64,000 nucleotides of DNA from an uncultured bacterium (GCA_937935355.1 CALGYR010000109.1:403-64402); one strand, 5' to 3'. Counted from the first letter of the stretch, positions 4,432-63,534 are shown. Numbers and translations: made by a program. Notes: generated by a model not told the origin, from the sequence alone.

Positions 4432-4475
4432 GGCGTCCCTCCTCTCGGCCTGAGTGCTTTCTTTCCAAAAACACT

Positions 4476-5327
4476 CTACCAGAGTCGGGACGCCTTTTCA
4501 TTAGGTTGCGGTGGCCGGCCGAAGGCCGGCCACCGCGATGGGTTCATCTGTGGCTGATGGAGGCTCTCAACGTAGTACTCCTGCCGGAGGTGCCGCGGCA
4601 CCAGGTCCAGGAAGCCCGCCAGGAACTCGAGCGCCGCCTCGAAGCGGTCGGGGGCCCAGCGGTTGCCATCCCAGACCAGGACCTCGCCACCGTCGAGCTC
4701 CACCGACCAGCCCGGACGGGCCAGCAGGTGCTCCATCATCCGCGGGTCCACCAGGGCATAGGCGAAACGCCGGTCGGCGCCCTGGACGTAGAACTTTCTG
4801 GAGAACTCGTGGCTCTCGAAGTCGATGTCCTCGAAGCCGGCGGCCGCCGCGGCGCGGTCGGCGGCGGTCTCCGGCCGAATCACCGTCCGCGGGAAAAGCC
4901 ACGGCTCGTCCGCCAGGACCGCCGACAGGTAGCACAGGGCGGTGCTCTTGCCCTGCGGGGTCAGCCGCCGCTGGTAGAGATAGTCGAAGGCCCGGACCCG
5001 ACGGCCGCGCCAGTCCCCGGCCAGGACGTTGAGGGCCGACTGCTTCCCGGCCACGCCGCGCGCCAGGACGTCGAACTTCGGCCCCAGCCGCCCGGCCAGG
5101 CCGGACTGGTCGGTCTCCGAGAAGGAAAGGCCGAGCTCCCGGGCCTTCCCCGCGAGAGCCCGCGCACGCCGGCGCTCGCGCAGGTACCAGCGCAGGCTGT
5201 AGAGCAGCCCCCCGACGATGACGGCGAACAGGACGTAGGGAATGGCGTACGCCGCCGGCGCCCAGGGTGGCTCGGACGGTGGCGGCGACCCGGGCCCGCC
5301 GGCTAGGAGCAGGAGGGGCGCGTTCAT
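4476..5327 (-). CDS. Membrane-anchored paralog A of a five-member tandem family (possibly DUF3137-like).
   Basis: Start MNAPLL at 5327 overlaps the upstream stop by 4 nt (ATGA). One TM helix, then a conserved domain (FDYxY ... VIRPE ... DIDFESxEFS ... AYDxV ... MMxxLLA ... GW ... W ... P ... F). The C-terminal tail is encoded by a GGTGGCCGGCC/GGCCGGCCACC hairpin plus a GTTCATCTGTGG repeat. Confidence 0.75.
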   Translation of the reverse strand: MNAPLLLLAGGPGSPPPSEPPWAPAAYAIPYVLFAVIVGGLLYSLRWYLRERRRARALAGKARELGLSFSETDQSGLAGRLGPKFDVLARGVAGKQSALNVLAGDWRGRRVRAFDYLYQRRLTPQGKSTALCYLSAVLADEPWLFPRTVIRPETAADRAAAAAGFEDIDFESHEFSRKFYVQGADRRFAYALVDPRMMEHLLARPGWSVELDGGEVLVWDGNRWAPDRFEAALEFLAGFLDLVPRHLRQEYYVESLHQPQMNPSRWPAFGRPPQPNEKASRLW

Positions 5328-14856: not shown

Positions 14857-17382
14857 GTGAGAACCGCATTGGGCATTCTGTTGACGCTGACCGCCGCAGG
14901 CGCGCTGCTCCTGCCGGGCCGGGCCGCAGCTCTCGAGGTCAAGCTCACCGTGGCCGACGACGCCAGGGTCGAGCGCAAGGCCGGGACGGTGACCTCCGGC
15001 GTGCCCTTCGCCAGAGGCGAGGTCAAGGACCTCGGCAGGCTCTCGGTCTCGACCGGCGGCAAGGTCGTGCCCGCCCAGTTCACCAAGATCGCCCCCTGGG
15101 ACGACGGCTCGGTGCGCTGGGCGCTCCTCGACTGCCAGGTCGACGCGCCGGCCGGAGGCAAGGTCGAACTGGTCGTGCGCGACGACGGGAAGAACGCCGC
15201 GCCGGCCGCCCCGGTCAAGGTCTCCGATGGCGACGCCGAGGTGAAGATGACCACCGGCGGCCTCGAAGTGGTCGTCGACAGGAAGAAGCCGGGACTCCTG
15301 CGCGTCAAGCTCGACGGCAAGGAACTGGCCGGAGCGGCCGGCCGCGGCATCGTGCTCTACGCCGCGGGCGAGCCCAGGGAGGTCGAAAAGAAGTCCGGCA
15401 ACCGCACGGTCAAGGTCACCGAGTACGGCCCGGGGAAAGAAGTCGTCGCCGCTGCCCCCTCCGAAGTGACCGTCGAGCAGGCCGGGCCGCTCCGCGCGAC
15501 GGTGGCGGTCCGCGGCAGGTTCCCGGACGTCCACGATGGGCTCCTCGGCTACACCGCCCGAATCTCCGTCTTCGCCGGACAGAAGCACGTCAAGGTGCAT
15601 CTCTGGATCGAGAACGGCGGGGCCATGGGCTACTACCACGGCGGCGACAAGAAGTCGCCCCGCACCGCCCGGATGGAGTGGCTGCTCTTCGACGGCCTGG
15701 CCGTCGAACTCGGCCTGGGGCTGGGCGGCGCGCCGGCCGCCTCCTGCGATGGCGCCGAGGCCTCCGGCAAGTTCAAGGTGCTCCAGGCCTGCTACTGGAA
15801 CAAGGACAAGCGCAAGCTGACCTACAACGATTACGAGGTCTTCAGCCTCAAGGACTACGAGTACGCCGTGACCGGCGACGGCAAGGAGCTAAAGAAGGGC
15901 GACCGCACCGACGGGGTGGTCGAGCTCAAGGGCCAGGCCGGCCGACTCACCACGGCGATCCGGGGTTTCTGGGAGAACTACGAGAAGGCCGTCGAGCTCG
16001 ACGGCGACAAGCTCCGCCTGTGGCTCTGGCCCACCGAGGGACAGTGGCCACGGGTCCGCCAGACCCAGTGGGCCGGGCTCTTCGACAAGGAGCTGGAGAC
16101 CTCGCCCAGGCCGGGGCTCTACTACCTGCCCGGCGCGGTCCACAAGGGCCACGAATTCATCCTGGACTTCTCCGGCCGTCCGGCCGCGGAGAGTTTCGCC
16201 GAGCTCTCCCGCCCGCTCTTCGCCCTGGCCGGCGCCGAGTACTACGCCTCGACCGACGCCGTCCCGGGCCTCTTCGCCCCGCAGGGGATCCGCACCGGCG
16301 ACGCGGACTGCGACGCCAAGCTCTCCGCCTGGGAGCGCATGGGCGCCAGCCTGGTCGATCCGGAGAGCTCCACCGGTCTCGTCGCCGCGCGCCGGCAGTC
16401 GAACTGGTCGTCGGTGACCTACTTCGGCGACAGCACCTACTGGTACGGCTGGATGGACTTCGGGGACATTCCCTCGCCGGCCCGGGGCCCGACGAGCCTG
16501 AGCCACGACTGGCTGTGGGTCATGATGCTCGACGCCATGCGCAGCGGCAATGTGGCTTTCATGCGCTTCGGCACGGAGATGGCCCGGCACCAGATCGACG
16601 TGGACCAGCTCTGGTCCGACCGGGACATGCCCGGGGTCCGCGGCCTGCAGCGCGGCGAAACCAACTTCCCGGCCTTCCACTGCTACCGGCTGTCCTCTCC
16701 GCCGGGCGTGCGCAGCAACCATCTGGCCGGCCTGGCGCTCTATCACATGCTCACCGGCGAGCCCAAGGCCCTGGAGGCCTGCCGCCGGAACGCCGAGGGG
16801 CTCAAGGTCGCCTGGGAAAACATCGCCAAGACCAAGCCCTGGGCCGGCCCCCAGGGCGACATGGCCGCCAACGGCTGGGCCATCCACGGCTACGTCGCCA
16901 TGAACGCCCTGACCGGAGACAAGGCCTGGCTGGACGAGGCCCTGGGGCTCTTCCGGGACAACGTGGTCCCGAAGTGGAAGGCGCTCGGGCCCCACCTGCA
17001 CGCCCGCGAGCAGATCAACTCCCAGGACTACACCGAGGACGACATCAAGTACTGCTACTCGATCGCCGCCCTGTGCCTGCTGCATCACGTCACCGGCGAC
17101 AAGCAGGTGCTGGAGCTGATCACCGCCGGCTGCGACAAGCCCTTCCCGGAGAACTTCTTCGACGCGCCGCTCTTCCTGGCCGACCTGCACGCCTACGCCG
17201 CGACGGTCACGGGCAAGGCCGGGTACGCCGCCGACGCCGTCGAGCACTGGATCGAGGCCTCGCCGGAGTCGGAGTGCCCGCCGGTCTTCCTGCCGGAAAG
17301 CAGCACCTGGACGCGGGTGAAGGCCATGCACCTGCGCACCGGCCACATCCTCCAGTATCACTTCTGGAAGAAGAAAAAGTAG
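14857..17382 (+). CDS. Secreted 841-aa paralog of the gene at 12282..14822.
   Basis: Signal peptide. Collinear, with roughly 60% similar blocks. Confidence 0.75.
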   Translation: MRTALGILLTLTAAGALLLPGRAAALEVKLTVADDARVERKAGTVTSGVPFARGEVKDLGRLSVSTGGKVVPAQFTKIAPWDDGSVRWALLDCQVDAPAGGKVELVVRDDGKNAAPAAPVKVSDGDAEVKMTTGGLEVVVDRKKPGLLRVKLDGKELAGAAGRGIVLYAAGEPREVEKKSGNRTVKVTEYGPGKEVVAAAPSEVTVEQAGPLRATVAVRGRFPDVHDGLLGYTARISVFAGQKHVKVHLWIENGGAMGYYHGGDKKSPRTARMEWLLFDGLAVELGLGLGGAPAASCDGAEASGKFKVLQACYWNKDKRKLTYNDYEVFSLKDYEYAVTGDGKELKKGDRTDGVVELKGQAGRLTTAIRGFWENYEKAVELDGDKLRLWLWPTEGQWPRVRQTQWAGLFDKELETSPRPGLYYLPGAVHKGHEFILDFSGRPAAESFAELSRPLFALAGAEYYASTDAVPGLFAPQGIRTGDADCDAKLSAWERMGASLVDPESSTGLVAARRQSNWSSVTYFGDSTYWYGWMDFGDIPSPARGPTSLSHDWLWVMMLDAMRSGNVAFMRFGTEMARHQIDVDQLWSDRDMPGVRGLQRGETNFPAFHCYRLSSPPGVRSNHLAGLALYHMLTGEPKALEACRRNAEGLKVAWENIAKTKPWAGPQGDMAANGWAIHGYVAMNALTGDKAWLDEALGLFRDNVVPKWKALGPHLHAREQINSQDYTEDDIKYCYSIAALCLLHHVTGDKQVLELITAGCDKPFPENFFDAPLFLADLHAYAATVTGKAGYAADAVEHWIEASPESECPPVFLPESSTWTRVKAMHLRTGHILQYHFWKKKK

Positions 17383-17385
17383 GGG

Positions 17386-17412
17386 CGGGTTTCAAACCCG
17401 CCCCTACGTCAT
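17386..17412 (+). terminator. GC-rich hairpin GGGGCGGGTTTCAAACCCGCCCC, a candidate intrinsic terminator with no U-tract.
   Basis: Perfect 11-bp stem 4 nt after the stop codon. A near-identical hairpin occurs at 63738-63762. Confidence 0.5.
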
Positions 17413-18235: not shown

Positions 18236-18350
18236 AAACCACCAAGGCACCAAGACACAAAGACGACACCAAGCTCAGACAAAGTTGACGCTTGGTCCGC
18301 CTCTGCGCCTCTGTGCCTTAGTGCCTTAGTGCCTTAGTGCCTTAGTGCCT
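18236..18350. repeat. Inverted pair of tandem repeats: (CACCAAGG / CACAAAGA units), a spacer, then (GCCTTAGT)x4.
   Basis: The arms are imperfect reverse complements (GGCACCAAG versus GGCACTAAG). It ends at the mtaB stop codon. Confidence 0.75.
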
Positions 18351-19761
18351 ACAAGGTCTCCGAGCCAGCCTCGGTCACGCTGCCGATCAGGTCGGCGCCC
18401 CGGGCGCGCTCGATCCTGACGCGATGGAGCTCGCGCAGGCGCCGCTCCGCTCCGGGCGGCAGCCGGAAGCCGGTCCGCACGTAGCGCCCGGTGTAGCCGG
18501 CCGGCAGTCCGGCCAGCGTGGCGTTCTCGGCCAGCACCTCCTCGACCCGGCCGACGCAGGCGGAGGCGAAGGCCGCCGCGAGCTCCCGACCGAGGGCCCG
18601 GGCCTCGTCGGCTCGCCGGCCGGCCTCGTCGACCGGGACGCGTCCGGGCAACCCGGCGGCCGGCGTGCCCCGGCGCGGCGAGTACCGGAAGACGTGCAGC
18701 CGCGAGAGCCCCGCGCGGCGGCAGACTTCCAGGGTCCGGTCGAAGGCCGCGGCGTCCTCTCCCGGGAAGCCGACCATGACGTCGGTCGAGACCGCCGGCA
18801 GGTCGAGCCGTCCGCGGAGCTGCTCCACGGCGGCGAGGAACTCCTCCGCGCGACAGCGCCGGTTCATGGCCCGGAGCACGCCGTCGTCGCCGCTCTGCAG
18901 CGGCAGGTGGAAGTGCGGGCATACCCGGGGCTCGCCGCCGGCGAGCGCGACCAGGCGCGGCGAGAGCTCCCCGGCTTCGAGCGAGCTGACCCGCACGCGC
19001 GCGCCCGGCGCGGCCGAGAGCGTCGCCTCGACGGCGTCGGCTAGCTCCAGCCGGCCGTCCAGGTCGCGCCCGTACCACCCCAGGTGCGTGCCGCAGAGGA
19101 CGATCTCGCGGCGCCCGTCGGCGGCGAGCCGGGCGGCCTCGGCCGCCACCGCCGCGAGAGGGCGGCTCCGCGGCCGGCCGCGCAGGGCCGGCACGACGCA
19201 GTACGTGCAGCCCGCCGCGCAACCGTCCTGGACCTTCAGGAAGGCCCGCGAGTGGCCGTCGAAGCGGGTGATACCCTCCGTCGAACGCGACGATTCACCG
19301 CGGAGACGCAGAGAGCGCAGAGACGACGCGGAGAACAACGACGACGTTTCGTTGCGGAGGGACATAGTGGCAACTCCACTCCCATCCTCTCCGCGCTCAC
19401 TACGCGCCCTCTGCGTCTCTGCGGTGACTTCCGGCCAGGCCAGTTTCTCCTCCTGATTGAGCGCCAGGTCGGCTCCGCTCCGGCGCAGCGCCTCCTCGCG
19501 GCCCAGGTGGCTTACCAGACAACCGGCCACGACCAGCCGGGCGCCGGGACTGCCGCGCATCAGGAGCCGGGCGGCATCCAGGCTCTTCCTCGCCGCCGGG
19601 GCGGTCACCGCGCAACCGTTGGTCAGGCAGATGTCGGCCACCTCGCCTTCGACCGCCCGGCGGAGCCCAGCCGCCTCCAGGCGCTCGGCGAGGCACTGGC
19701 CCTCGTATTGGTTCACCTTGCAGCCCAGGCTGACTATCCGGAAGGTCTCTGGAGAGGCCAA
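18349..19761 (-). CDS. mtaB: MtaB/MiaB-family radical-SAM methylthiotransferase. It carries an in-frame insert of about 45 aa, encoded by a palindromic element, between the MTTase domain and the radical-SAM domain.
   Basis: N-terminal MTTase domain, CAAGCTYC radical-SAM Cys motif and a TRAM-like C-terminus. The ORF is uninterrupted across the palindromic element at 19296-19426. Confidence 0.85.
   Translation of the reverse strand: MASPETFRIVSLGCKVNQYEGQCLAERLEAAGLRRAVEGEVADICLTNGCAVTAPAARKSLDAARLLMRGSPGARLVVAGCLVSHLGREEALRRSGADLALNQEEKLAWPEVTAETQRARSERGEDGSGVATMSLRNETSSLFSASSLRSLRLRGESSRSTEGITRFDGHSRAFLKVQDGCAAGCTYCVVPALRGRPRSRPLAAVAAEAARLAADGRREIVLCGTHLGWYGRDLDGRLELADAVEATLSAAPGARVRVSSLEAGELSPRLVALAGGEPRVCPHFHLPLQSGDDGVLRAMNRRCRAEEFLAAVEQLRGRLDLPAVSTDVMVGFPGEDAAAFDRTLEVCRRAGLSRLHVFRYSPRRGTPAAGLPGRVPVDEAGRRADEARALGRELAAAFASACVGRVEEVLAENATLAGLPAGYTGRYVRTGFRLPPGAERRLRELHRVRIERARGADLIGSVTEAGSETL
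19296..19426. repeat. Palindromic element lying in frame inside mtaB: CACCGCGGAGACGCAGAGAGCGCAGAGACGACGCGGAG, a loop, then CTCCGCGCTCACTACGCGCCCTCTGCGTCTCTGCGGTG.
   Basis: The 38-nt arms are about 80% reverse-complementary. Same family as the element at 20622-20748. Confidence 0.8.
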
Positions 19762-19767
19762 GGCGCT

Positions 19768-20538
19768 TCAGTCCAGCGCGGGGCGGGGCGCGGCCAGGCT
19801 CAGGCCCTCGCAGAGCAGTCCGGCGGCCAGGGCCACAGCGGCGGTCTCCACGCGAAGGACATTGGTCCCGAGGGTCAGGCGCCGGAGCCGCTCGGCGCCG
19901 GCGGCCGACTCGATGGCGGCAAGGTCGCCGGCGGTAAGCCCGCCCTCCGGCCCGACGAGCGCGAGCACCCGTTCGCCGGCGGGCAGCCCTGCGAGCGCCC
20001 GGCGCGGCGGCTCCCCGCGCCGGAGTTCGAGGACGAGCACCCGCCCGAACTCCCCGGCGCGAGCGGCTATCTCGCCGGCGGCCATCGGCCCGGCCACCTG
20101 CATGAGGCTGGCCTGCCGCGACTGTTTGGCGGCGGCTTCGGCCAGGCGGCGCCAGCGCTCCACCGCGTTCTCCGAGCCGGAGCGCGGGCTGCGGCTCCAC
20201 TGCGCCGGCCAGAGCTCGGCGACGCCCAACTCGGCACACTTCTCGACCAGCCAGGACATGCGCTTGCCCCTGGGCACGGCCACGGCCAGCGTCAGCCGCC
20301 AGCCGGCCGCGACGCCGGCGGGCAGTTCCTCCAGCACCCGGCAGAGGGCCTGTTCGCCCTCGGTCCCGACGAGCTCGGCCCGCCAGGCGCGCCCGCGGCC
20401 GTCGAAGAGCTCCACCCGGTCGCCCGGTGCGGCCCGGCGCGACTGGAGCAGGTGGCGGCTCTCCTTCGCCGGGAGGGCCACCACGTCGCCGGCACCGGCG
20501 GGCGCCGGCTCGGCCAGGAAACGCCCCTGGATGCGCAT
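19768..20538 (-). CDS. rsmE: 16S rRNA (uracil1498-N3)-methyltransferase RsmE.
   Basis: Start MRIQGRF at 20538. RsmE-like PUA N-terminus and SPOUT C-terminus (LVGPEGG ... LGTNVLRVETA). Directly upstream of mtaB. Confidence 0.8.
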   Translation of the reverse strand: MRIQGRFLAEPAPAGAGDVVALPAKESRHLLQSRRAAPGDRVELFDGRGRAWRAELVGTEGEQALCRVLEELPAGVAAGWRLTLAVAVPRGKRMSWLVEKCAELGVAELWPAQWSRSPRSGSENAVERWRRLAEAAAKQSRQASLMQVAGPMAAGEIAARAGEFGRVLVLELRRGEPPRRALAGLPAGERVLALVGPEGGLTAGDLAAIESAAGAERLRRLTLGTNVLRVETAAVALAAGLLCEGLSLAAPRPALD

Positions 20539-20621
20539 GGCCCCGATGGTAAGAGCTCCGGTCCGGCGCGCAACCGAAACCGGCTCGAAGCCGGCCAACG
20601 GCCATCGCCTGAAACGCGGTT

Positions 20622-20748
20622 CACCGCCGAGACGCTGAGCCGCCGAGACAAGATACTGGCCGCGGCAGAGGGCTTTTCTCTGCAAGAGCCGTCTGTCGCG
20701 TCCATAAGCCAGCTCTGCGCCTCCGCGCCTCTGCGGTGCAGGCACCTT
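20622..20748. repeat. Palindromic element of the CACCGC-GAGACGC ... CTCTGCGGTG family.
   Basis: Lies in the divergent intergenic region between rsmE and the histidine kinase. It shares both termini with the mtaB-internal element. Confidence 0.7.
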
Positions 20749-25134: not shown

Positions 25135-25164
25135 GCCTTGGCAATCACAGCGTGCAGCGGGGCT

Positions 25165-25345
25165 CTTCGGCTCTCCGGGAGGGGGCGCTCCGCGGTGAGG
25201 AAACGCGCAGCGTTTCCTCAGCCGGGTTTCATCTCTCGTCGGGCGCGGAAATGTGTGGCTGGCGTCGGGAATGAGATTCAAACCCTGCGGCCTGCGGCCG
25301 CATGGCTTGAATCCGTGCCCCCTCCCGGAGAGCCGAAGAGCCCCG
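25165..25345. repeat. MITE-like element with perfect 28-bp terminal inverted repeats (GGGGCTCTTCGGCTCTCCGGGAGGGGGC ... GCCCCCTCCCGGAGAGCCGAAGAGCCCC) and nested internal hairpins.
   Basis: Read directly. Internal hairpins are GAGGAAACGC-gcag-CGTTTCCTC and GATTCAAACC ... GGCTTGAATC. Intergenic, between the histidine kinase and the isomerase. Confidence 0.8.
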
Positions 25346-29198: not shown

Positions 29199-29222
29199 CA
29201 GACCCCCTCCCTGCGGGGCGAG

Positions 29223-29312
29223 CCGAACAGCCAACAACCAACAGCCAACAACCAGCAGCCAACATCATTGTTGGTTGTTGGACGTTGGTTGTTGGTTGTT
29301 GGCTGTTCGTTC
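29223..29312. repeat. Inverted tandem repeat (CAGCCAACAAC units, a loop, then GTTGTTGG units), near-perfect hairpin.
   Basis: It fills the whole gap between the hydrogenase small-subunit and large-subunit genes. Confidence 0.85.
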
Positions 29313-29318
29313 ATCTGC

Positions 29319-30089
29319 TCACTCCCGATAGAGCTCCACCCCCGGCTGGAACTCGTGGGTGGGGTAGCCGAACTCGCTGAAGCGCCGGGCGATCTCGTCC
29401 GGCGGCTGGCCCATGAGCCGGAACTGGCGGGCGAGCGCCGGGGCGTTGGGCTTCTCCATCGGCCCCCAGCAGGCGTAGCAGGCGCGGCCGTTCGACGGGC
29501 AAAGGGCACCGCAGCCGGCGTTCGTCACCGGGCCCATGCAGGGCAGGTTGTCAGAGACCAGCACGCAGGTGTTGCCGCGCATCTTGCACTCGACGCAGAC
29601 AGCGTAGGCGGCCGTGTCCGGCCGACGGCCGAGCAGGAGCCCCGAGACCACTTCGAGCACCTCTGCCTCGCCCACCGGACAGCCGCGCGCGTAGGCGTCT
29701 ACCCTGACGTAGTGGTCCACCGGCGAGGCCCGGACCGAGTGAACCGTGGAGAGGTCCCGGTAGACCCGGGCCTCGACCTCGCGCTCGTTGACCAGGTTCT
29801 TGATGGCCGGGATGCCGCCGTTGGTTGCGCAGGAGCCGATGGGCACCAGGAAGCCGCTGACGTTCCGGACGTGCTTGAGCTCGTCGGCCTGCCAGGACTC
29901 GGTGATGGTGCCCTCGATCAGGGCCAGGTCGAAGGGGCCCTCGGGGGTGCCGGCGTCGGTCTCCATACGGCCGTAGACCACCTCCACGGCCCCGAGCAGT
30001 TCGGCCACCTTGCGCTGGAAGAAGATGAGCTGGAACTGGCAGCCGGCGCAGCAGCTGTATTTGAAGATGCCCAGGCGCGGCTTCTTCAT
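29319..30089 (-). CDS. hydD: [NiFe] hydrogenase small (delta) subunit, group 3.
   Basis: Start MKKPRLG. Cys clusters CCAGC and GSCATNGG for Fe-S coordination. Confidence 0.9.
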   Translation of the reverse strand: MKKPRLGIFKYSCCAGCQFQLIFFQRKVAELLGAVEVVYGRMETDAGTPEGPFDLALIEGTITESWQADELKHVRNVSGFLVPIGSCATNGGIPAIKNLVNEREVEARVYRDLSTVHSVRASPVDHYVRVDAYARGCPVGEAEVLEVVSGLLLGRRPDTAAYAVCVECKMRGNTCVLVSDNLPCMGPVTNAGCGALCPSNGRACYACWGPMEKPNAPALARQFRLMGQPPDEIARRFSEFGYPTHEFQPGVELYRE

Positions 30090-30919: not shown

Positions 30920-30944
30920 GGGCGGGGGCCTTCACGGGGAAAGG

Positions 30945-31076
30945 CAGAAGGGAGAAAGCAGAAGGCAGAAGGACGAAGGGAGAAGGACGAGGGGCGTGGG
31001 ACAGCCCCTCCTTTTCGGTTTCTGCCTTCTGCCTTCATCCTTCTGCCTTCCCCTTCAGGTCTTCTGCCTTTTCCGT
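30945..31076. repeat. Inverted tandem repeat (GCAGAAGG units, a loop, then CCTTCTGC units).
   Basis: The right arm encodes the hydB C-terminal tail (...KAEDLKGKAEG). Confidence 0.85.
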
Positions 31077-33556: not shown

Positions 33557-33728
33557 ACCACAAAGACACGAAGACACCAAGAGAACACAAAGGGAGACGG
33601 ACTGACTACCATCCGCGGCGTGGGACTCCGGCGACGTGATCGTCACCCGCCGCGCACGGTGGCTCTGCCGTTCTTCGTGTCCTCTTGGTGTCTTGGTGCC
33701 TTGGTGGTTTGGTGCTCGGTGGTTTGGG
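33557..33728. repeat. Inverted tandem repeat of the CACAAAGA/CACCAAGA family with an 80-nt loop.
   Basis: The arms are reverse complements. Sits between the GAF gene and GH130. Confidence 0.8.
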
Positions 33729-34755: not shown

Positions 34756-34785
34756 CTCCCTTCGTCAACCGGGCGGGCATTCTAA

Positions 34786-34962
34786 CCACGAAGCCACAAA
34801 GACACAAAGACACAAAGACACAAAGACACGAAGGAACACGAAGGACGGCAGCGACTTTCGTGTCCGCGGCGGAAGCTTCCGAGCTCATCGACGAACGTTG
34901 CCGCGCCCATGCCCCAATCTGTTCTTGGTGATGTCTTCGTGTCTTTGTGCCTTTGTGGTTGG
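34786..34962. repeat. Inverted tandem repeat (CACAAAGA)x4, a 78-nt loop, then (TCTTTGTG) units.
   Basis: Same family as the repeat at 33557. The two together bracket the GH130 gene. Confidence 0.85.
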
Positions 34963-38436: not shown

Positions 38437-39413
38437 CAGAGCACCTCCTCGCGCCCGGCCGGGACCAGGCCGGCCCGTCGGCGCATGGCCTCGAGAGCCG
38501 CGCGCCGCTCCGGACTCTCCCCGGCCAGCAACTCCGGCCGGACGGAGAGGAAGTGGCGCAGCTCGGCCTCGCCCATCGGGCGGAGTTCCCGGGAGAGCTC
38601 GTCCACCGCCCCGGCCTCGCCGCTCTGCGGGATCCACAGGCGGTAGATGGTGCGGTGGCGCTCGGACTCGCCGATCCGGTCGGGGGTGCTCAGCGGTATC
38701 GAGCAGAGCACCGCCGGGGCCCCGCCGACCCGGTCGTAGGCGCGTTCCGGGCCGGCCTCGACGAAGAGCAGCTTGCGCCGATAAAAGCCGGCGTGGCGTG
38801 GATTGACGGTGATCACGAAGTCGGTGGCGCCGCGGATGCGGCGGGCCACGAGGTAGGCGAGGTTGAAGAGGCGAACCAACAACTCCGAGCCGGCGACGGT
38901 TTCCTCGTCGATGCCCAGGGAGACGATCTCGGCCAGGCGCCGGCCGCGCTCCCGCAGGGCGTCGAGCTCCGCGCCGAAGAGTCCGTCGGCCGGCAATCCC
39001 AGCGGCGAGTCGAAGACCACGGTGAGAGCGCCGACGGGGACGACGGCGGTGGAAGGTGGAAGGTGGAGGGTGGAAGACAAAAGGGCGGAGGCCGAACTGT
39101 CGCGATCGGCTCCTTCCACCTTCCACCCTCCACCTTCCACCAGGCGCTTTTCGGCCAGAAGCGTCACCGTGTCGGGCTGGGCGTCATGGATGGACATCCA
39201 CAGCCTCGAGGGATGCGGTCGGGCGTATTCCTTCTCAAGGTACAGGCGGTAGATCAGTCCATAGGCGCTCCGGCGGCTCGCCAGGTCGTTGGCCACGCGG
39301 ATGCGATACGCCGCCGCCGCGCCCACCGACGCGGGTCCCTCATAACCGGTGCGGGCGACATCGGGAGTTCCCTCCAGGGCCTTGAGTCTCTGGCTCAGCT
39401 TCGTGGTCTTCAT
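38436..39413 (-). CDS. FeeM-like GNAT-fold N-acyltransferase (N-acyl amino acid synthase family). It carries an in-frame insert encoded by a palindromic repeat.
   Basis: Start MKTTKL at 39413 with a GGGAGA RBS. N-terminal YRIRVANDL ... AYGLIYRLYLEKEY resembles the long-chain N-acyl amino acid synthase (Acetyltransf_5) family. The ORF continues uninterrupted through the repeat at 39049-39140. Confidence 0.5.
   Translation of the reverse strand: MKTTKLSQRLKALEGTPDVARTGYEGPASVGAAAAYRIRVANDLASRRSAYGLIYRLYLEKEYARPHPSRLWMSIHDAQPDTVTLLAEKRLVEGGGWKVEGADRDSSASALLSSTLHLPPSTAVVPVGALTVVFDSPLGLPADGLFGAELDALRERGRRLAEIVSLGIDEETVAGSELLVRLFNLAYLVARRIRGATDFVITVNPRHAGFYRRKLLFVEAGPERAYDRVGGAPAVLCSIPLSTPDRIGESERHRTIYRLWIPQSGEAGAVDELSRELRPMGEAELRHFLSVRPELLAGESPERRAALEAMRRRAGLVPAGREEVL
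39049..39140. repeat. Near-perfect palindromic element lying in frame inside the N-acyltransferase gene: (GGTGGAAG)x4, a 34-nt loop, then (CTTCCACC)x4.
   Basis: Read directly. Encodes ...VEGGGWKVEGADRDSSASALLSSTLHLPPSTAVV... within the ORF. Confidence 0.85.
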
Positions 39414-48596: not shown

Positions 48597-51272
48597 ATGA
48601 AGACAGCATCTGCCGTTCTTGCCGGCCTGATCCTCTGCGCGGCTTTCGCGGCTGGCGGTGAAGCCTCCCCGCCGCAGCGGGCGAACTTCACCGCCAAGCC
48701 CGCCGTGGCCAAGGCCGGCGACAAATTTACGATCACTTTCACGGTCGCAGGCCCCACCGACGCCGAGGTGGCCGTGCTCGACGCCGGCGGCAAGGTCGTC
48801 CGCCACCTGGCCGCCGGGATGCTCGGAGGGGAGAAGCCGCCTCCCGAGCCGCTCAAGCCGGGTCTCGCGCAGTCGCTCGAGTGGGACCTGAAGGATGACG
48901 CCGGGAAACCCGCCTCCGGCGGACCATTCAAGGTGCGCGTCAAGCTCGGGCTCAAGCCGGAGTTCGACGGCTTCCTGCTCGACAACCCGGTCGGCACCGG
49001 CTCGATCGGCGCGCTGGCTGTCGGCCCGGGCGGGCAGCTCTACATCTGGCACCACGACTGCACCGCCAACGGCAACCAGGGAGCCGAAAAGCTGAAAGTG
49101 ATCGGCCGCGACGGCAAGTACGTCCGCACGCTCATCCCTTACCCCGCCAACCTGTCACCCGAGAAGGCCAAGGTGTTGGGCGCCTTCCTCGACGACGACG
49201 GGAGCCTCGTGCCGCGGGTCTACAACATCCAGCAGCTCAACCTGAACTACGAGGGCCGCGGCGACCGCGGCCCGTCCATGATGGGCTTCTCCTGCCCGGC
49301 GGTGGATGGGAAGGGCCGGGCCTACTGGCTGGTCCGCGGCGGCCAACTGGAGTGCGTCGAGGCCGACGGCAGTTCGCCCTACGACACGTTCCTGAGCCCG
49401 CCGATCGTGGCCGGTTTCAAGGCGTTGGTCGGCCGCCCGGCGCTGTGCCCCGCCTCGGATGACAAGGGCCTCTACGTCTCCGGTCTGGGCGCGGCCGACG
49501 ACAGCTGGGGCAAGAACTCACGGGCGCTGCCCGCCGTCTGGCTGATCGACACGGCCACGCGCAAGGCCGAGGTCTTCGTCGGCAACCTCGAGGAGACCGG
49601 TAAGGAGAAGGACCGCCTGACCGCGCCGCGCGGCGTGGCCGCGGCCAAGGGGCTGCTCTACGTGGCCGACCCCGGAGCGGACCGCGTGGCGGTCTTCAAG
49701 GAGGCCGACCGCTCCTTCGCCGGCGAGATCAAGGTGAAGGACCCGCAGAGCATCGGCGTCGACCCGGCCACCGGTGCAGTGTACGTCTGCGCCTACACCG
49801 GCAAGGGGACCGCCGACCTCATCAAATTCGAGAAGTACGACACCGGCAAGGAGCTCTACAGGATCGCCCTGCCCAAGACCGGGCTCTCTCCCAACGGCGG
49901 GGTCCACCGGATCGCGGTCGATGCCTCGGCCAAGCCCGTGCTGGTCTACGTCCCGGGGCTGCCCTACGGCCCGCCCTTCACCCGCATCGAGGACGCCGGC
50001 GACAAGTTCCAGATCACGGCCGACCCGCGCGACCTCAAGCGCGCCTGGGCGCCCGGGCCCCGCGACCTGACGTTCGACCGCGCCCGCGGCGAGCTCTACG
50101 TCAAGGGCGGCTCGGACCAGCGCTACTTCCGGGTCGAGGAGAAGACCGGCAAGGTCACCGAGCTCGTCAAGATCGCCGGCGGCGGGGCCGCGGGCAGCCA
50201 GCTGGTGGCCTCGCCGGACGGCAGCCTGGTGATCTACGGCTGGGGGGAGATGGGTCTGCGCCACCTCGACCGCGACGGCAAGCCGCTCAACTGGCCGGGA
50301 CGGGACACCAACGCGATCAAGTACAGCGGGATCATGACCTTCATGCAGCGCTACATGGCGCTGCCCAGGGACGACGAGATATTCATCATCCTGCCGCCGG
50401 AATACCGCAAGAACCCCAAGTCGAGCGGCGGCGACTACAGCTCGGTCAACGTCCTGGGCACAGACGGCGGGACCAAGCGCACGGTCATCTGGCAGTGCAC
50501 CGCCGGGGCGGTCCTGCGGGTCGACGCCAGGGGCAACATCTACCTCGCCGAGATGCTGAAGCCCGCCGGCCGGCTCTATCCGGAGTTCTTCGACGGGAAG
50601 ATCGGGAAGATCCCCAGGGGCAAGTCGGTGGGCGGCCTGAGCGGCAACCCCGAGGGGGCCGCCGCATTCTGGGAAAGCAACATGTACGGCAGCATCGTCA
50701 AGTTCCCGCCGTCGGGCGGGGTCATCTGGTACAACAAGGACCTGCCCCACGGCGTGGAGGGCGCTCCGCCGGCCGAGCTCCTGGCCAAGCCCAAGCTCAC
50801 CTTCGACACGCACATCGGCTACGGCTACAAGCCGGTCGAGGTGCAGGGCGCCGAGTGGGTGCGCTTCGGCTTCTCGCCCTACGGCGTGACCCGCGGCGCC
50901 GGCTTCTGCATGTGCGAGGGCGCCGGCTTCGACGTCGACGGCTACGGGCGCGTCTTCTACCCGAACCTCGGCCAGTTCCGGATCGAGGTCGTGGACAACG
51001 CCAACAACAGGATCGGGACGTTCGGCAAGTACGGCAACCAGGACGACGGCGGGGCGGGGGACGGGGGGCGAGGGGCGAGCGGGAAAGGGAAGAGCGAGGG
51101 CGCCGATTCAGGGACCCGCACCTCGCCCCCCGCACCCCGCTCCATTCCATTGGCCTGGCCGACCTACGTGGCCGTCTCCGACGACTACGCCTACGTCAAC
51201 GACACGCTCGCCAACCGCGTGGTCCGGGTGAAGCTCGGCGCGGCTGCGGAGGAGAGTTGTGAGGTGAAGTAG
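48597..51272 (+). CDS. Secreted 891-aa beta-propeller repeat protein (NHL-like repeats).
   Basis: ATG 9 nt after an AAAGGAG RBS. Signal peptide. Repeats of the YVADPGADRVAVF type. Tandem paralog of the gene at 51328. Confidence 0.7.
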   Translation: MKTASAVLAGLILCAAFAAGGEASPPQRANFTAKPAVAKAGDKFTITFTVAGPTDAEVAVLDAGGKVVRHLAAGMLGGEKPPPEPLKPGLAQSLEWDLKDDAGKPASGGPFKVRVKLGLKPEFDGFLLDNPVGTGSIGALAVGPGGQLYIWHHDCTANGNQGAEKLKVIGRDGKYVRTLIPYPANLSPEKAKVLGAFLDDDGSLVPRVYNIQQLNLNYEGRGDRGPSMMGFSCPAVDGKGRAYWLVRGGQLECVEADGSSPYDTFLSPPIVAGFKALVGRPALCPASDDKGLYVSGLGAADDSWGKNSRALPAVWLIDTATRKAEVFVGNLEETGKEKDRLTAPRGVAAAKGLLYVADPGADRVAVFKEADRSFAGEIKVKDPQSIGVDPATGAVYVCAYTGKGTADLIKFEKYDTGKELYRIALPKTGLSPNGGVHRIAVDASAKPVLVYVPGLPYGPPFTRIEDAGDKFQITADPRDLKRAWAPGPRDLTFDRARGELYVKGGSDQRYFRVEEKTGKVTELVKIAGGGAAGSQLVASPDGSLVIYGWGEMGLRHLDRDGKPLNWPGRDTNAIKYSGIMTFMQRYMALPRDDEIFIILPPEYRKNPKSSGGDYSSVNVLGTDGGTKRTVIWQCTAGAVLRVDARGNIYLAEMLKPAGRLYPEFFDGKIGKIPRGKSVGGLSGNPEGAAAFWESNMYGSIVKFPPSGGVIWYNKDLPHGVEGAPPAELLAKPKLTFDTHIGYGYKPVEVQGAEWVRFGFSPYGVTRGAGFCMCEGAGFDVDGYGRVFYPNLGQFRIEVVDNANNRIGTFGKYGNQDDGGAGDGGRGASGKGKSEGADSGTRTSPPAPRSIPLAWPTYVAVSDDYAYVNDTLANRVVRVKLGAAAEESCEVK

Positions 51273-51403
51273 GGACTGAGGTACTAAGGTACTAAGGGAC
51301 TAAGGCACTGAGTGAACGGAGAACAGCATGGCAACCGAATTGGCGAGTCCGGCAGCGCGTGCAAAGCACACTAAGTGCCTGAGTGCCTTAGTGCCTCAGT
51401 GCC
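51272..51403. repeat. Inverted tandem repeat (GGACTAAG/GTACTAAG units, a loop, then GCCTTAGT/GCCTCAGT units).
   Basis: The right arm encodes the hydrophobic core of the signal peptide of the gene at 51328 (HTKCLSALVPQCLLLL). Confidence 0.8.
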
Positions 51404-54060
51404 TCTTGCTGCTAGCAGGGCTCGCCTCCGCCGGCGAGGCCTCGTTCGCCGCCAAGCCGACCGCGACGAAGGCCGGCGACAAGTTCACGATCCGCTTCGC
51501 AGTCGCCGCGGCCACTGACGTCGAGGTCGCGGTGCTCGACGCCGGCGGCAAGATCGTGCGCCACCTGGCCGCCGGCGTGCTCGGGGCGAAGACGCCGCCG
51601 CCGGAGCCGCTCAAGTCGGGACTCGCCCAGTCGATCGAGTGGGACGGCAAGGACGACGCCGGGAAGCCCGCGGCGGGCAGCCCCTTCAAGGCCCGCGTCC
51701 GTCTGGGCCTGAAGCCCGAGTTCGACCGCTTCATGCTCTACGAGCCTGACGCGTTTCCGGGAGTGAGCGCCCTGGCCACCGGGCCGAAGGGCGAGGTCTA
51801 CGCTTTCTACAAGGACCCCACCGCCAACGGCAACCAGGGCGGGTTCAAGGTCCGGATCATCACCCGCGAGGGCAGATTCGTCCGCCAGATCCTGCCCTTC
51901 CCCGCCGACCTGCCCCACGACAAGGTCAAGGCCAGCGGGGCTTTCCAGGACGGGGACGGGAGCCTTGTGCCGCAACTGCACAACTGGCACACGATGCGCT
52001 TCTATCCGGACACGGTCCCGGCACGGAACAGGAGCTTCCCCGGTTTCGGGCAGCCGGTCGTGGACGCCTCCGGCCGGCTCTACTGGATCATCGGCGACGG
52101 CCGGCTCTGCGCCCTGGACGCCGACGGCGGCATCCCGTACGAGACGTACCTCAGCGAGCCGCTCTTCCCGGGCTTCCCCAACGCCGCCACCCACGGCCAC
52201 GGGCCGACGCTGTGCATGAGCTCCGACGGCAAGCACCTCTACGCCACCAGCACCCACGCCAAGGACGGCTGGGGCGGCGGGACCCAAGCCATCCCCTGCG
52301 TCTGGCGCATCGACGCGGCCACGCGCAAATCGGAGGTCTTCGTCGGGAAGCCCGATCAGGCCGGCAAGGAGAAGGAGTTGCTCTCCAGTCCCCGCGGCGT
52401 GGCCGCCGCCCAGGGGCTCCTCTACGTCGCCGACCCGGAGGCGGGGCGGGTGGCGGTCTTCAAGGAAGAGGACCGCTCGTACGTCGGCGAGATCAAGTGC
52501 GTCCTGCCGCACATCGTACACGTCCACCCCAAGACCGGCGCGGTCTACGTGGTCAGTTACGTGCCCGAGGCCAAACCCAGAGGCGACGGGAAGTGCCGCA
52601 TCACCGACGCGAACCTCTTGAAGTTCAAGAGCTACAAGGACGAGAAGCCGGCGGTCACCATGCCGCTGCCGCGGACGGGGCTGAGCCCCAACGGGGGCGC
52701 CCACCGCATCGCGCTGGACGCCTCGGCCGAGCCGCCGCTCCTCTGGGCGCCGGGGCTGCCCTACGCGCGGGGAGCGGCCAGCCATCTCGCCTGCTACCGC
52801 GACGTGGGAGAGAAGATCGAGCCGGTGGACGTGCCCTCCCCCAAGGGCCCCTGGGGCAACGGCCCGCGCGACCTGGTGGTCGACCGCGCCCGCGGCGACC
52901 TCTACGTCAAGGTCCAGGGCGAGCAGTGGCACCAGTTCGAGGAGGCCACCGGCAAGTACGTCCGCCTGGTCAGCTTCGACAAGAACAAGGGCGGCCCCTA
53001 CGCAGGCAGCTCCGGATCGCAGTTGGGCATCGATGCCTCGGGCGACTACGTCCTGCACTGCTGGGGCGACAAGGCCGGGCTGATGCGCTGGAGCCGGGAC
53101 TTGAAGCCCCTCAACTGGGAGGGCAGGGACACCAACCGCAGCGAGTGGGGCGGAATGATGACCTTCCAGCTGAACTACCTGGCGCTGCTGGGCAATGACA
53201 TCTACGTGATCAAGCCCGTCAAGGGCCCGCACAACGTGGAGGTCTACGACCAGGGACTCAAGGTCAAGCGCCGCGTCGTCTGGAACGTCCGGCGCGGCAG
53301 TTGCCTGCGGGTCGACGCGAAGGGCAACATCTACACCACCGTTCCGCTCCGGCCGGCCGATCGAGACTTCGAGGAGTTCTTCGACGGCAAGCTCGGGAAG
53401 ATCCCCGACTACTACAACGGGGTCGGCAACGGCCCGCACTACTGGTACACCTACATGGCCGGGGCCATCGTCAGGTTCCCGCCGGAGGGAGGGGCCTTCC
53501 TCTGGACGGGCGACAAGGAGGCCGGCGAGGTCGCCGCCGACCTGCCCGAGAAGGTCGCCGCCAGGCCCAGGGTCAAGTGCCAGTACTTCCCCGGCGGCCA
53601 CCACCCGCACAAGACCTGCGAAGTCCAGGGCGCCGACTGGATCCGCTTCGGCTACGCGCCCTACTCCGAGACCTACGGCGCGGGTACGCCCGTGTGCATG
53701 TGCGAGGGCGCGGGCTTCGACGTCGACGGCTGGGGCCGGGTGTGGCACACCAACCTCTTCCGCTTCCGGGTCGAGGCTGCCGACGCGGCCAACAACACGA
53801 TCGCGACGTTCGGCGCCTACGGCAACCAGAACTCGCAGGGCGCAGGCAAGGGGCTCCCGGCAGCGGAAGGCGGCACGGAGGGCTCAGTCGGGAAGACCGC
53901 GGCTGCGAAGAGCGGACCGCGCCACCAGGACATCCCTCTGGCCTGGCCGACCTACGTGGCCGTCTCCGACGACTACGCCTACGTGAACGACACCGTTGAC
54001 ATGCGCGTGGTCCGCGTCAGGCTCGGTGCGGCGGCCGAGGCAACTTGCGAGGTGAAGTAA
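51328..54060 (+). CDS. Secreted 910-aa beta-propeller repeat protein, paralog of the gene at 48597..51272.
   Basis: Collinear similarity throughout, including the C-terminus IPLAWPTYVAVSDDYAYVNDT. The N-terminus is partly encoded by the repeat. Confidence 0.7.
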   Translation: MATELASPAARAKHTKCLSALVPQCLLLLAGLASAGEASFAAKPTATKAGDKFTIRFAVAAATDVEVAVLDAGGKIVRHLAAGVLGAKTPPPEPLKSGLAQSIEWDGKDDAGKPAAGSPFKARVRLGLKPEFDRFMLYEPDAFPGVSALATGPKGEVYAFYKDPTANGNQGGFKVRIITREGRFVRQILPFPADLPHDKVKASGAFQDGDGSLVPQLHNWHTMRFYPDTVPARNRSFPGFGQPVVDASGRLYWIIGDGRLCALDADGGIPYETYLSEPLFPGFPNAATHGHGPTLCMSSDGKHLYATSTHAKDGWGGGTQAIPCVWRIDAATRKSEVFVGKPDQAGKEKELLSSPRGVAAAQGLLYVADPEAGRVAVFKEEDRSYVGEIKCVLPHIVHVHPKTGAVYVVSYVPEAKPRGDGKCRITDANLLKFKSYKDEKPAVTMPLPRTGLSPNGGAHRIALDASAEPPLLWAPGLPYARGAASHLACYRDVGEKIEPVDVPSPKGPWGNGPRDLVVDRARGDLYVKVQGEQWHQFEEATGKYVRLVSFDKNKGGPYAGSSGSQLGIDASGDYVLHCWGDKAGLMRWSRDLKPLNWEGRDTNRSEWGGMMTFQLNYLALLGNDIYVIKPVKGPHNVEVYDQGLKVKRRVVWNVRRGSCLRVDAKGNIYTTVPLRPADRDFEEFFDGKLGKIPDYYNGVGNGPHYWYTYMAGAIVRFPPEGGAFLWTGDKEAGEVAADLPEKVAARPRVKCQYFPGGHHPHKTCEVQGADWIRFGYAPYSETYGAGTPVCMCEGAGFDVDGWGRVWHTNLFRFRVEAADAANNTIATFGAYGNQNSQGAGKGLPAAEGGTEGSVGKTAAAKSGPRHQDIPLAWPTYVAVSDDYAYVNDTVDMRVVRVRLGAAAEATCEVK

Positions 54061-54115: not shown

Positions 54116-54195
54116 AGAGCTTCCGGAAGGAACCTCGGGACGGGCCTGATCGACCCAGACAGGCAGGCCCGTCCCGAGGTTCCTTCCGGAAGCTC
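54116..54195 (+). terminator. Perfect 33-bp-stem hairpin (AGAGCTTCCGGAAGGAACCTCGGGACGGGCCTG, a 14-nt loop, then the reverse complement). Candidate terminator.
   Basis: Read directly. Lies 55 nt after the stop at 54060. Preceded by GTCGGACC-type units. Confidence 0.55.
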
Positions 54196-54471
54196 TTGAC
54201 AAGTAGATGGGCACGACAGAGTCCGGCGTCCGAGCGCAAGGGCCGACGCCGGACCCGGCATCCTCCGCAAGTCATCCAAGCACGCGACATCACACTGTAA
54301 TGCCATACACAGCACAGCAGTCACCAAATAGCGAAGGCGCACCCATAATACGCGTTGCGGTATCTTAGGATTAGAGTCCAAGATTCTAGCTTTTGTTGAA
54401 CGCAGCTCATGGCTGCGGTGTAATGACACTGCATAACATCTGTGATGCAACAGATTGGGGACAGGTGAAGA

Positions 54472-63411: not shown

Positions 63412-63534
63412 TCTAGCCCTCGGCCTCGCCGCACGCAACTCTGCTAACGGCGGGGGTGCGCGGAGGATTCGCGCCTTTGGCACGACTCGAAACCGCCAAG
63501 GCGCCAAGAACGACGAGGGAGGTAGCCGCAGATG

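Follow-up and report, generated by a model that had tools for sequence, protein, structure and literature searches.

Rickettsia palindromic elements (RPEs) are palindromes of about 100-150 bp that lie in frame in housekeeping genes, where the peptide they encode is added at positions that the fold of the protein can accommodate (PMC10969869). These elements end in CGTC (PMC3733652). Repetitive extragenic palindromes (REPs) are units of 20-40 nt with stems of 6-13 bp, tagged by GTAG or CGTC (Di Nocera et al. 2013, PMC3733652), and they are occasionally intragenic and translated, including in tRNA- and RNA-modification genes (PMC3733652). Here we analysed a stretch of 64,000 nucleotides from an uncultured bacterium (GCA_937935355.1 CALGYR010000109.1:403-64402; 69.4% G+C), hereafter the window, in which a long inverted-repeat element (19294-19428) is read in frame within a gene for an MtaB-type radical-SAM methylthiotransferase (MTTase; 18349-19761, minus strand). 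The insert is very probably a hairpin repeat without a gene of its own, with the same arms as bracket GxxExxY genes in many bacterial phyla, that spread into a permissive linker of mtaB and is carried there as a tolerated passenger.

As a phenomenon this is of a known kind, in-frame translated palindromes being a recognized route to new peptide segments, as in RPEs and intragenic REPs. To these the mtaB insert adds a case from a Planctomycetota MtaB that is clean and dated. Of greater interest is what the repeat family turns out to be.

A hairpin repeat of 45 codons in the mtaB linker

The element contains a 40-nt inverted repeat (19295-19334 and 19388-19427) with 80% complementarity and a 53-nt spacer. 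We defined its limits, 19294 and 19428, by the inverted repeat together with the dinucleotides (TT...AA) that flank family copies elsewhere. The resulting 135 nt are exactly codons 112-156 (V112 to E156) of the mtaB-like open reading frame (ORF), which continues uninterrupted through the whole element, and the inserted peptide of 45 residues reads VTAETQRARSERGEDGSGVATMSLRNETSSLFSASSLRSLRLRGE. An earlier note on this DNA had already recognized an in-frame inverted repeat with arms about 80% reverse-complementary; its dimensions of 131 bp for the element and 38 nt for the arms are replaced by 135 and 40 nt, and its estimate of about 45 added residues was right in length but not in peptide sequence, which is corrected here. 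Because the element is exactly 45 codons long and stop-free in the mtaB frame, the ORF stays open. Four of its six frames are without a stop, and it is thus not improbable that a copy of 135 nt should leave the ORF intact.

Both arms are built as runs of octamers. The first (19294-19334, TTCACCGCGGAGACGCAGAGAGCGCAGAGACGACGCGGAGA) has a terminal TTCACCGC and, after it, CGCAGAGA-type octamers in tandem, detected by Tandem Repeats Finder with period 8 and unit CGCAGAGA at 19299-19325, and it is matched by an arm profile built from 238 family arms (E = 3.3e-7). The second arm (19388-19428) is its inverted repeat, ends in ...CTCTGCGTCTCTGCGGTGAC and is matched by the same profile with E = 1.6e-6. 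The 53-nt central loop (19335-19387) contains two small hairpins and, on the mRNA strand, GGAGTGGAG followed by an ATG (Met133). As single-stranded RNA, the mRNA (minus) strand of the element folds at -87.2 kcal/mol, compared with -54.2 +/- 4.2 kcal/mol for 200 dinucleotide shuffles (z -7.9), none of which was as stable as the element; the plus strand folds at -81.9 kcal/mol (z -8.1). No Rfam family reached its gathering score in the window, with nothing beyond chance-level matches (E ~8) around the element, and a terminator scan around the mtaB-like gene revealed no intrinsic-terminator-like site.

We assigned the 470-residue host protein to the MtaB type of the MiaB/RimO family by Pfam, NCBIfam, its homologues and an AlphaFold2 (AF2) model searched with Foldseek. 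Pfam places the N-terminal MTTase domain UPF0004 (PF00919, E = 4.9e-16) at residues 7-91 (19489-19743, minus strand) and the radical-SAM domain (PF04055) at residues 176-345 (18727-19236, minus strand), which agrees with the interdomain position proposed in the earlier note. The CxxxCxxC motif (C181, C185 and C188, at 19198-19221) is invariant across 113 aligned sequences, and the columns of C14, C50 and C81 of UPF0004 are invariant or almost so. The protein passes the NCBIfam MiaB/RimO subfamily model TIGR00089 (320.4, cut-off 251); its best NCBIfam match is to the MtaB equivalog TIGR01579, where it remains just below the cut-off (329.3 vs 357.05). The closest named database proteins come from Planctomycetota metagenome-assembled genomes (MAGs) and are annotated as MtaB. 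The earlier note had also called mtaB essential; in Bacillus subtilis, however, deletion of yqeV (mtaB) gives no significant growth phenotype (PMC5389704), and the term is not supported.

The AF2 model, for which the 113 aligned sequences were the input, has a mean predicted local distance difference test score (pLDDT) of 93 and a predicted TM-score (pTM) of 0.91. Its best Foldseek matches in the PDB are MtaB (9a6d), MiaB (7mjy) and RimO (4jc0), with TM-scores of ~0.8. TRAM has no Pfam match; at the C-terminus, residues 406-462 are modelled as a beta-rich domain. The sole internal region of low confidence is residues 112-160, with block-mean pLDDT of ~58-82. The protein gains a segment of 45 residues that is modelled with low confidence, and outside it no invariant residue is lost and the fold is predicted with confidence.

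To compare linkers, we measured the distance between two conserved anchors in the same alignment, which comprises the window protein and 112 homologues. The interdomain linker is 70 residues long in the window protein against a median of 35 (range 25-72), and a long linker was found in just two of the 113 sequences, the window protein and a homologue termed P0003 (72 residues). The earlier note had held that the palindrome would be coincidental if orthologues had the same linker without repeat symmetry; orthologues do not carry this linker, and of the 20 closest relatives 18 are gapped opposite the extra 45 residues. Composition sets the insert apart as well, with G+C at codon positions 1, 2 and 3 of 0.60, 0.62 and 0.67 compared with 0.78, 0.57 and 0.92 in the rest of the gene, and outside the insert even the 45-codon window with the lowest third-position G+C (GC3) reaches 0.80. 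Among the 113 sequences, rare insertions of 15 or more residues are confined to the UPF0004/radical-SAM linker and one other position. The copy sits between codons 111 and 157, in this length-variable linker. When the protein database was searched with the 45-residue peptide, no entry had enough words in common with it to become a candidate.

An origin of the palindrome by coincidence in a native low-complexity linker, or by faulty assembly, would be in keeping with the variable linker length among homologues (25-72 residues) and with the many weak inverted repeats that arise in high-GC sequence. It has to contend, however, with a fold z of -8, a GC3 sharply unlike that of the rest of the gene, termini that both fit the arm profile and a pattern found at 117 or more loci, and the recovery of the same protein in NCBI, ENA and Logan and of the insert in a second sample (see below). 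We give this explanation practically no credence.

Palindromes of three different kinds have entered the MTTase/radical-SAM linker independently. In the gene of P0003 (L004:2133-2214), a perfect 27-nt inverted repeat of the AAAAGGTGTCAGACACCTTTT type lies in frame in the same linker (fold z -6.9), and in that of another homologue, P0096 (L122:1864-1926), a TGTCACCCTGAGCGAAGCGAAGGGTCTC-type palindrome does so (fold z -7.3); both are unrelated to the mtaB element. The simplest reading is a selection filter, in which repeats land widely and copies survive only in tolerant spots. Repeat-like peptides were also seen at other positions of MtaB, in P0064 and P0072. By eye, the linker of P0002, longer by 20 residues, had been taken for a decayed remnant of the same insert; this idea was dropped, the arm profile being blank in contig L001 even at E <= 10.

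The repeat family and its GxxExxY cassettes

Arms of the family can be summarized as TTCACCGC followed by tandem octamers NGAGNCGC. Both ends of the mtaB element carry the terminal TTCACC(G/A)C with two or more (N)GAG(N)C(G/A)C-type octamers in tandem, and its two inverted arms form one long hairpin. By its palindrome, fold and arm profile, the mtaB copy is a gene-less member of this family. We scanned contigs from one genome per species with a full-element pattern (CACCGCNGAGRCGCNGAG, 65-95 nt, CTCNGCGYCTCNGCGGTG), which revealed at least 117 loci elsewhere, and the termini of the mtaB element match this pattern base for base. The loci are distributed over Acidobacteriota, Planctomycetota, Verrucomicrobiota, Chloroflexota and the alpha-, beta-, gamma- and delta-Proteobacteria, and occur also in Elusimicrobiota, Bacteroidia, a Heliobacteriaceae MAG and others. 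Across family loci the arms are conserved and the loops unrelated. The flanks of 118 copies contain no direct repeat that would mark a target-site duplication, only a palindromic TT...AA, often with further complementarity. The full pattern was present in only four viral contigs, giving no sign of phages as main carriers.

In-gene copies are rare. Among 119 elements of other genomes, 18 were stop-free in a read-through scan, and we translated and inspected 10 of them. Most proved to be artefacts of high G+C or to lie upstream of the start of a gene. The one other in-gene candidate that looks genuine (L046:7130-7235) belongs to the same family and lies in an ORF of at least 918 codons, with no Pfam domain, in a Pyrinomonadaceae MAG of 46% G+C.

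Family arms also bracket a gene. On L004, the contig of P0003, the profile places arms at 1237-1268 and 1713-1743, 507 nt apart, and these enclose a 132-residue GxxExxY gene (TIGR04256, 151.6 bits; PF13366, PDDEXK_3) between rsmE and mtaB. An Alphaproteobacteria MAG (L009) has a full cassette at 4674-5119, located 87 nt from a 130-nt hairpin (4458-4587) in whose loop the ~20 initial codons of the gene run directly into the final bases ahead of the right arm (identity 83% in 65 nt; hidden Markov model (HMM) match). With the gene's 5' end kept in this loop, some short hairpins, at least, are internal-deletion derivatives. Both loci show a further peculiarity at the right arm: the annotated GTG start of the L004 mtaB falls within it, and the full L009 ORF, which contains one frameshift, reads through it and takes its stop codon from the terminal GGTGAA.

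Sampling that started from the gene yielded at least 600 metagenome stretches, and 578 of the 600 listed encode relatives; we took the best 80 loci, and 70 had sufficient flank. In 61 of these 70 loci, the flanking inverted arms outscored all 58 controls (median 45.5 vs 16). Nearly all cassette arms start with TTCACC(G/A)C and continue with octamers such as CACGGAGA, CACAGAGA, CGCAGAGA, CGCAAAGA, CACAAAGA and CGCCGAGA. A typical cassette measures ~440-460 nt and encodes a protein of ~125 residues. The function of PF13366 is listed as 'Unknown' (PMC3424549), and the GxxExxY protein has no relative in the PDB by sequence. We found no description of a GxxExxY cassette in the open-access literature, where absence is not proof.

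These observations allow a broader model, which we put forward tentatively and rate at somewhat under an even chance. Octamer-armed hairpins and the ~125-residue GxxExxY gene (PD-(D/E)XK fold) would together form a selfish cassette spanning many phyla, whose nuclease would recognize or cut its own arms and so favour their homing or conversion. Hairpins without a gene would remain as its traces, ~1 per 10 kb, with fast turnover between strains, and an occasional copy would become frozen in a gene, as in mtaB, and then come under constraint. Such a cassette origin would explain the very common intergenic hairpins of environmental genomes and the spurious small ORFs translated from them, and the widespread GxxExxY/PDDEXK_3 family gains a testable hypothesis, namely action on its own octamer arms.

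Within the 64-kb window, the arm profile matches only four arms, those of two copies (E 3e-7 to 1e-4). The second copy (20620-20740, 121 nt) belongs to the same arm subfamily, judged from its shared termini and arm profile, and is intergenic between the rsmE-like gene upstream of mtaB and a divergent sensor kinase gene; the earlier note had correctly seen the same family here, with slightly different limits (20622-20748). A looser arm motif gives 10 matches in the window, with 0.08 expected. Two more intergenic members were identified from an inverted repeat and this motif, at 33557-33708 (arms AACCACAAAGACACGAAG...) and 34785-34959 (arms ACCACGAAGCCACAAAG...), and a solo family arm is located at 63492.

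A related hairpin with the loose motif lies directly after the mtaB stop codon (18238-18346), and its arms consist of CACCAAGG and GGCACTAAG units. Every unit pairs GGCACUAAG with CUUGGUGCC, leaving one G.U on the mtaB mRNA strand and an A.C on the other. Since the mismatches are G.U wobbles on the mRNA strand but A.C mismatches on the opposite one, this suggests that the structure matters as RNA in the mtaB orientation. Counted by hand in the mtaB copy itself, the same asymmetry is mixed (3 vs 2) and gives no strand inference.

We further noticed three copies on two contigs (L050 and L057) of a single Bacteroidia MAG that are near-identical even in their loops and in ~20 nt of flank. This suggests that a larger unit was recently amplified in this genome. 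More copies are present on L052 and L110 of the same MAG, with differing loops or flanks.

The insert in a second strain

An identical 470-residue protein is recorded in NCBI, ENA and Logan, and another sample contains a 96% identical MtaB of the same length (P0121), encoded on a contig, L204, with the same gene order and the insert. Neither strain has a frameshift or stop in mtaB. The insert is therefore not a product of faulty assembly or of a frameshift error, the latter a possibility that the earlier note had raised. The gene upstream of mtaB (19768-20538, minus strand) is identified as rsmE-like because of its synteny with L001, L004 and L204, in which Pfam PF04452/PF20260 are matched, and it is 95% identical in nucleotide sequence to its L204 counterpart. 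Its stop codon lies 6 nt ahead of the mtaB start, and the gene order matches that of relatives.

Outside the insert, the window and L204 show 22 differences among the 850 sites at codon positions 1 and 2 (2.6%), against 26 among 284 4-fold sites (9.2%), so purifying selection on the gene continued after the insertion. The insertion is common to the two strains, and the gene is still under purifying selection. This bears on the possibility that the ORF is open by chance, with mtaB being a young pseudogene or split into two halves, the second starting internally at Met133 after GGAGTGGAG. Such an outcome would be in line with the four open frames of the element and with the loop's Shine-Dalgarno-like sequence followed by an in-frame ATG, but every invariant and catalytic residue is retained, codon positions 1 and 2 have changed far less than 4-fold sites, and both strains are free of frameshifts and stops. 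We consider inactivation highly improbable.

The insert itself differs at 3 of 135 nt between the strains, whereas ~12 differences would be expected from the 4-fold rate (binomial P ~0.001). The L204 hairpin folds at -88.8 kcal/mol, compared with -87.2 kcal/mol in the window, the three changes leaving the fold intact. The two intergenic hairpins that flank rsmE-mtaB (20620-20740 and 18238-18346 in the window) have different octamer units and unrelated loops in L204 and are 65-78% identical between strains, against 95% for the genes. This points to fast replacement of intergenic hairpins or to a concerted change in their two arms. With the intergenic hairpins replaced between the strains and the in-gene one kept, it follows that free copies turn over quickly and that the in-gene copy is frozen.

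One explanation for this contrast is exaptation, in which the insert is kept for an acquired role, either as an RNA hairpin (-87 kcal/mol) that tunes translation or stability or serves as an RNase III site, or as a helical peptide that provides a new surface. The scarcity of changes in the insert relative to 4-fold sites, the conserved fold and the replacement of same-family intergenic hairpins between the same two strains are all consistent with it. Low divergence is, however, also expected if indels or arm conversion break the reading frame, or if the insert spread recently between strains by recombination, and the comparison involves only two sequences. Furthermore, other MtaB homologues function without the insert, and the peptide is of low complexity and low model confidence. 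On balance we think exaptation unlikely.

We favour the spread of a selfish repeat, from which the insertion would have arisen by one of two routes: the short element may have been moved in trans, or recombination or gene conversion may have taken place between arms. The GxxExxY nuclease-fold protein could mobilize or convert the arms. The insert would then persist because the linker is among the few sites of MtaB that tolerate extra sequence, and it would be a passenger with no part in the enzyme mechanism. Several observations weigh against this account. The insert is more conserved than 4-fold sites, which fits a constraint on hairpin or peptide and not a purely neutral passenger. No close relative was found with an empty mtaB site that would delimit the junctions of the insertion or a target-site duplication. 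The 64-kb window contains no GxxExxY gene, and the HMM detected no remnant of one in the loops of the window hairpins, including the mtaB copy. A remnant was present in one of 119 short elements, that of L009, and it is by parallel with this element only that the mtaB copy might be derived from a full cassette.

Other hairpins in the window and comparison with described systems

Several further hairpins of the window are of other kinds. Long hairpins at 1973-2082, 29215-29325, 30937-31074 and 39027-39148 have arms of tandem units (CACAGATGCA, AGCCAAC, AAGGCAG and GGTGGAA) with periods of 7-10, and none of the four matches the TTCACC arm motif. The hairpin at 51271-51408 has (ACTAAGG)n and (CTTAGTGCC)n arms, and its loop holds an in-frame ATG (51329) of a 915-residue ORF (51316-54060); its right arm may be translated at the N-terminus of the protein, or the true start may lie after the right arm. 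The ORF that ends at 54060 is followed by an inverted repeat (54116-54196) of 33 bp, perfect and with 15 nt in its loop, and the sensor kinase gene by a perfect one of 29 nt whose arms are 130 nt apart (25158-25345). At a convergent gene junction (17381-17409), GTAGGGGCGGGTTTCAAACCCGCCCCTAC forms a perfect GTAG-tagged REP-like hairpin, a repeat class different from that of the mtaB element.

Among described systems, RPEs are alike in that the mtaB element is a palindrome of the ~100-150 bp class and lies in frame in an ORF. The earlier note had drawn a comparison with the in-frame palindromes of Rickettsia and Neisseria, which holds as an analogy but not as membership. The host belongs to another phylum and the sequence is different, with family ends TTCACC...GGTGAA and arms of tandem octamers. 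The termini of the mtaB element, TTCACCGC and GCGGTGA(A/C), lack the CGTC tag and are set apart from RPEs by the description of the latter. In-gene copies are rare in the octamer-arm family (one other candidate in 119 elements), and octamer arms bracket the GxxExxY gene, whereas RPEs are without a known associated gene.

REPs and the REPIN-RAYT system resemble the family in being abundant and mostly intergenic hairpins that are occasionally translated, and in having a small gene flanked by the repeats. The mtaB element, however, is one long hairpin with octamer arms of 30-40 nt, carries no tag, and has arms that are not self-complementary units. The gene flanked by octamer arms has a PD-(D/E)XK fold (PF13366) and is not a RAYT, an IS200/IS605-type tyrosine transposase.

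The 23S rRNA intervening sequences of Leptospira and Coxiella, which carry a small ORF or none, have an inverted-repeat stem and sit at a tolerant spot in an essential, highly expressed gene, and they are excised from the rRNA by RNase III. The mtaB insert differs from these in lying in a protein-coding gene, where it is presumably translated, and in the family of the cargo.

[quoted passage not shown] The octamer-arm family differs from them in having no evident target-site duplication, in a gene-bearing relative of just ~450 nt whose ~125-residue nuclease-fold protein has no demonstrated transposase activity, and in arm sequences that are common to many phyla and enclose unrelated loops.

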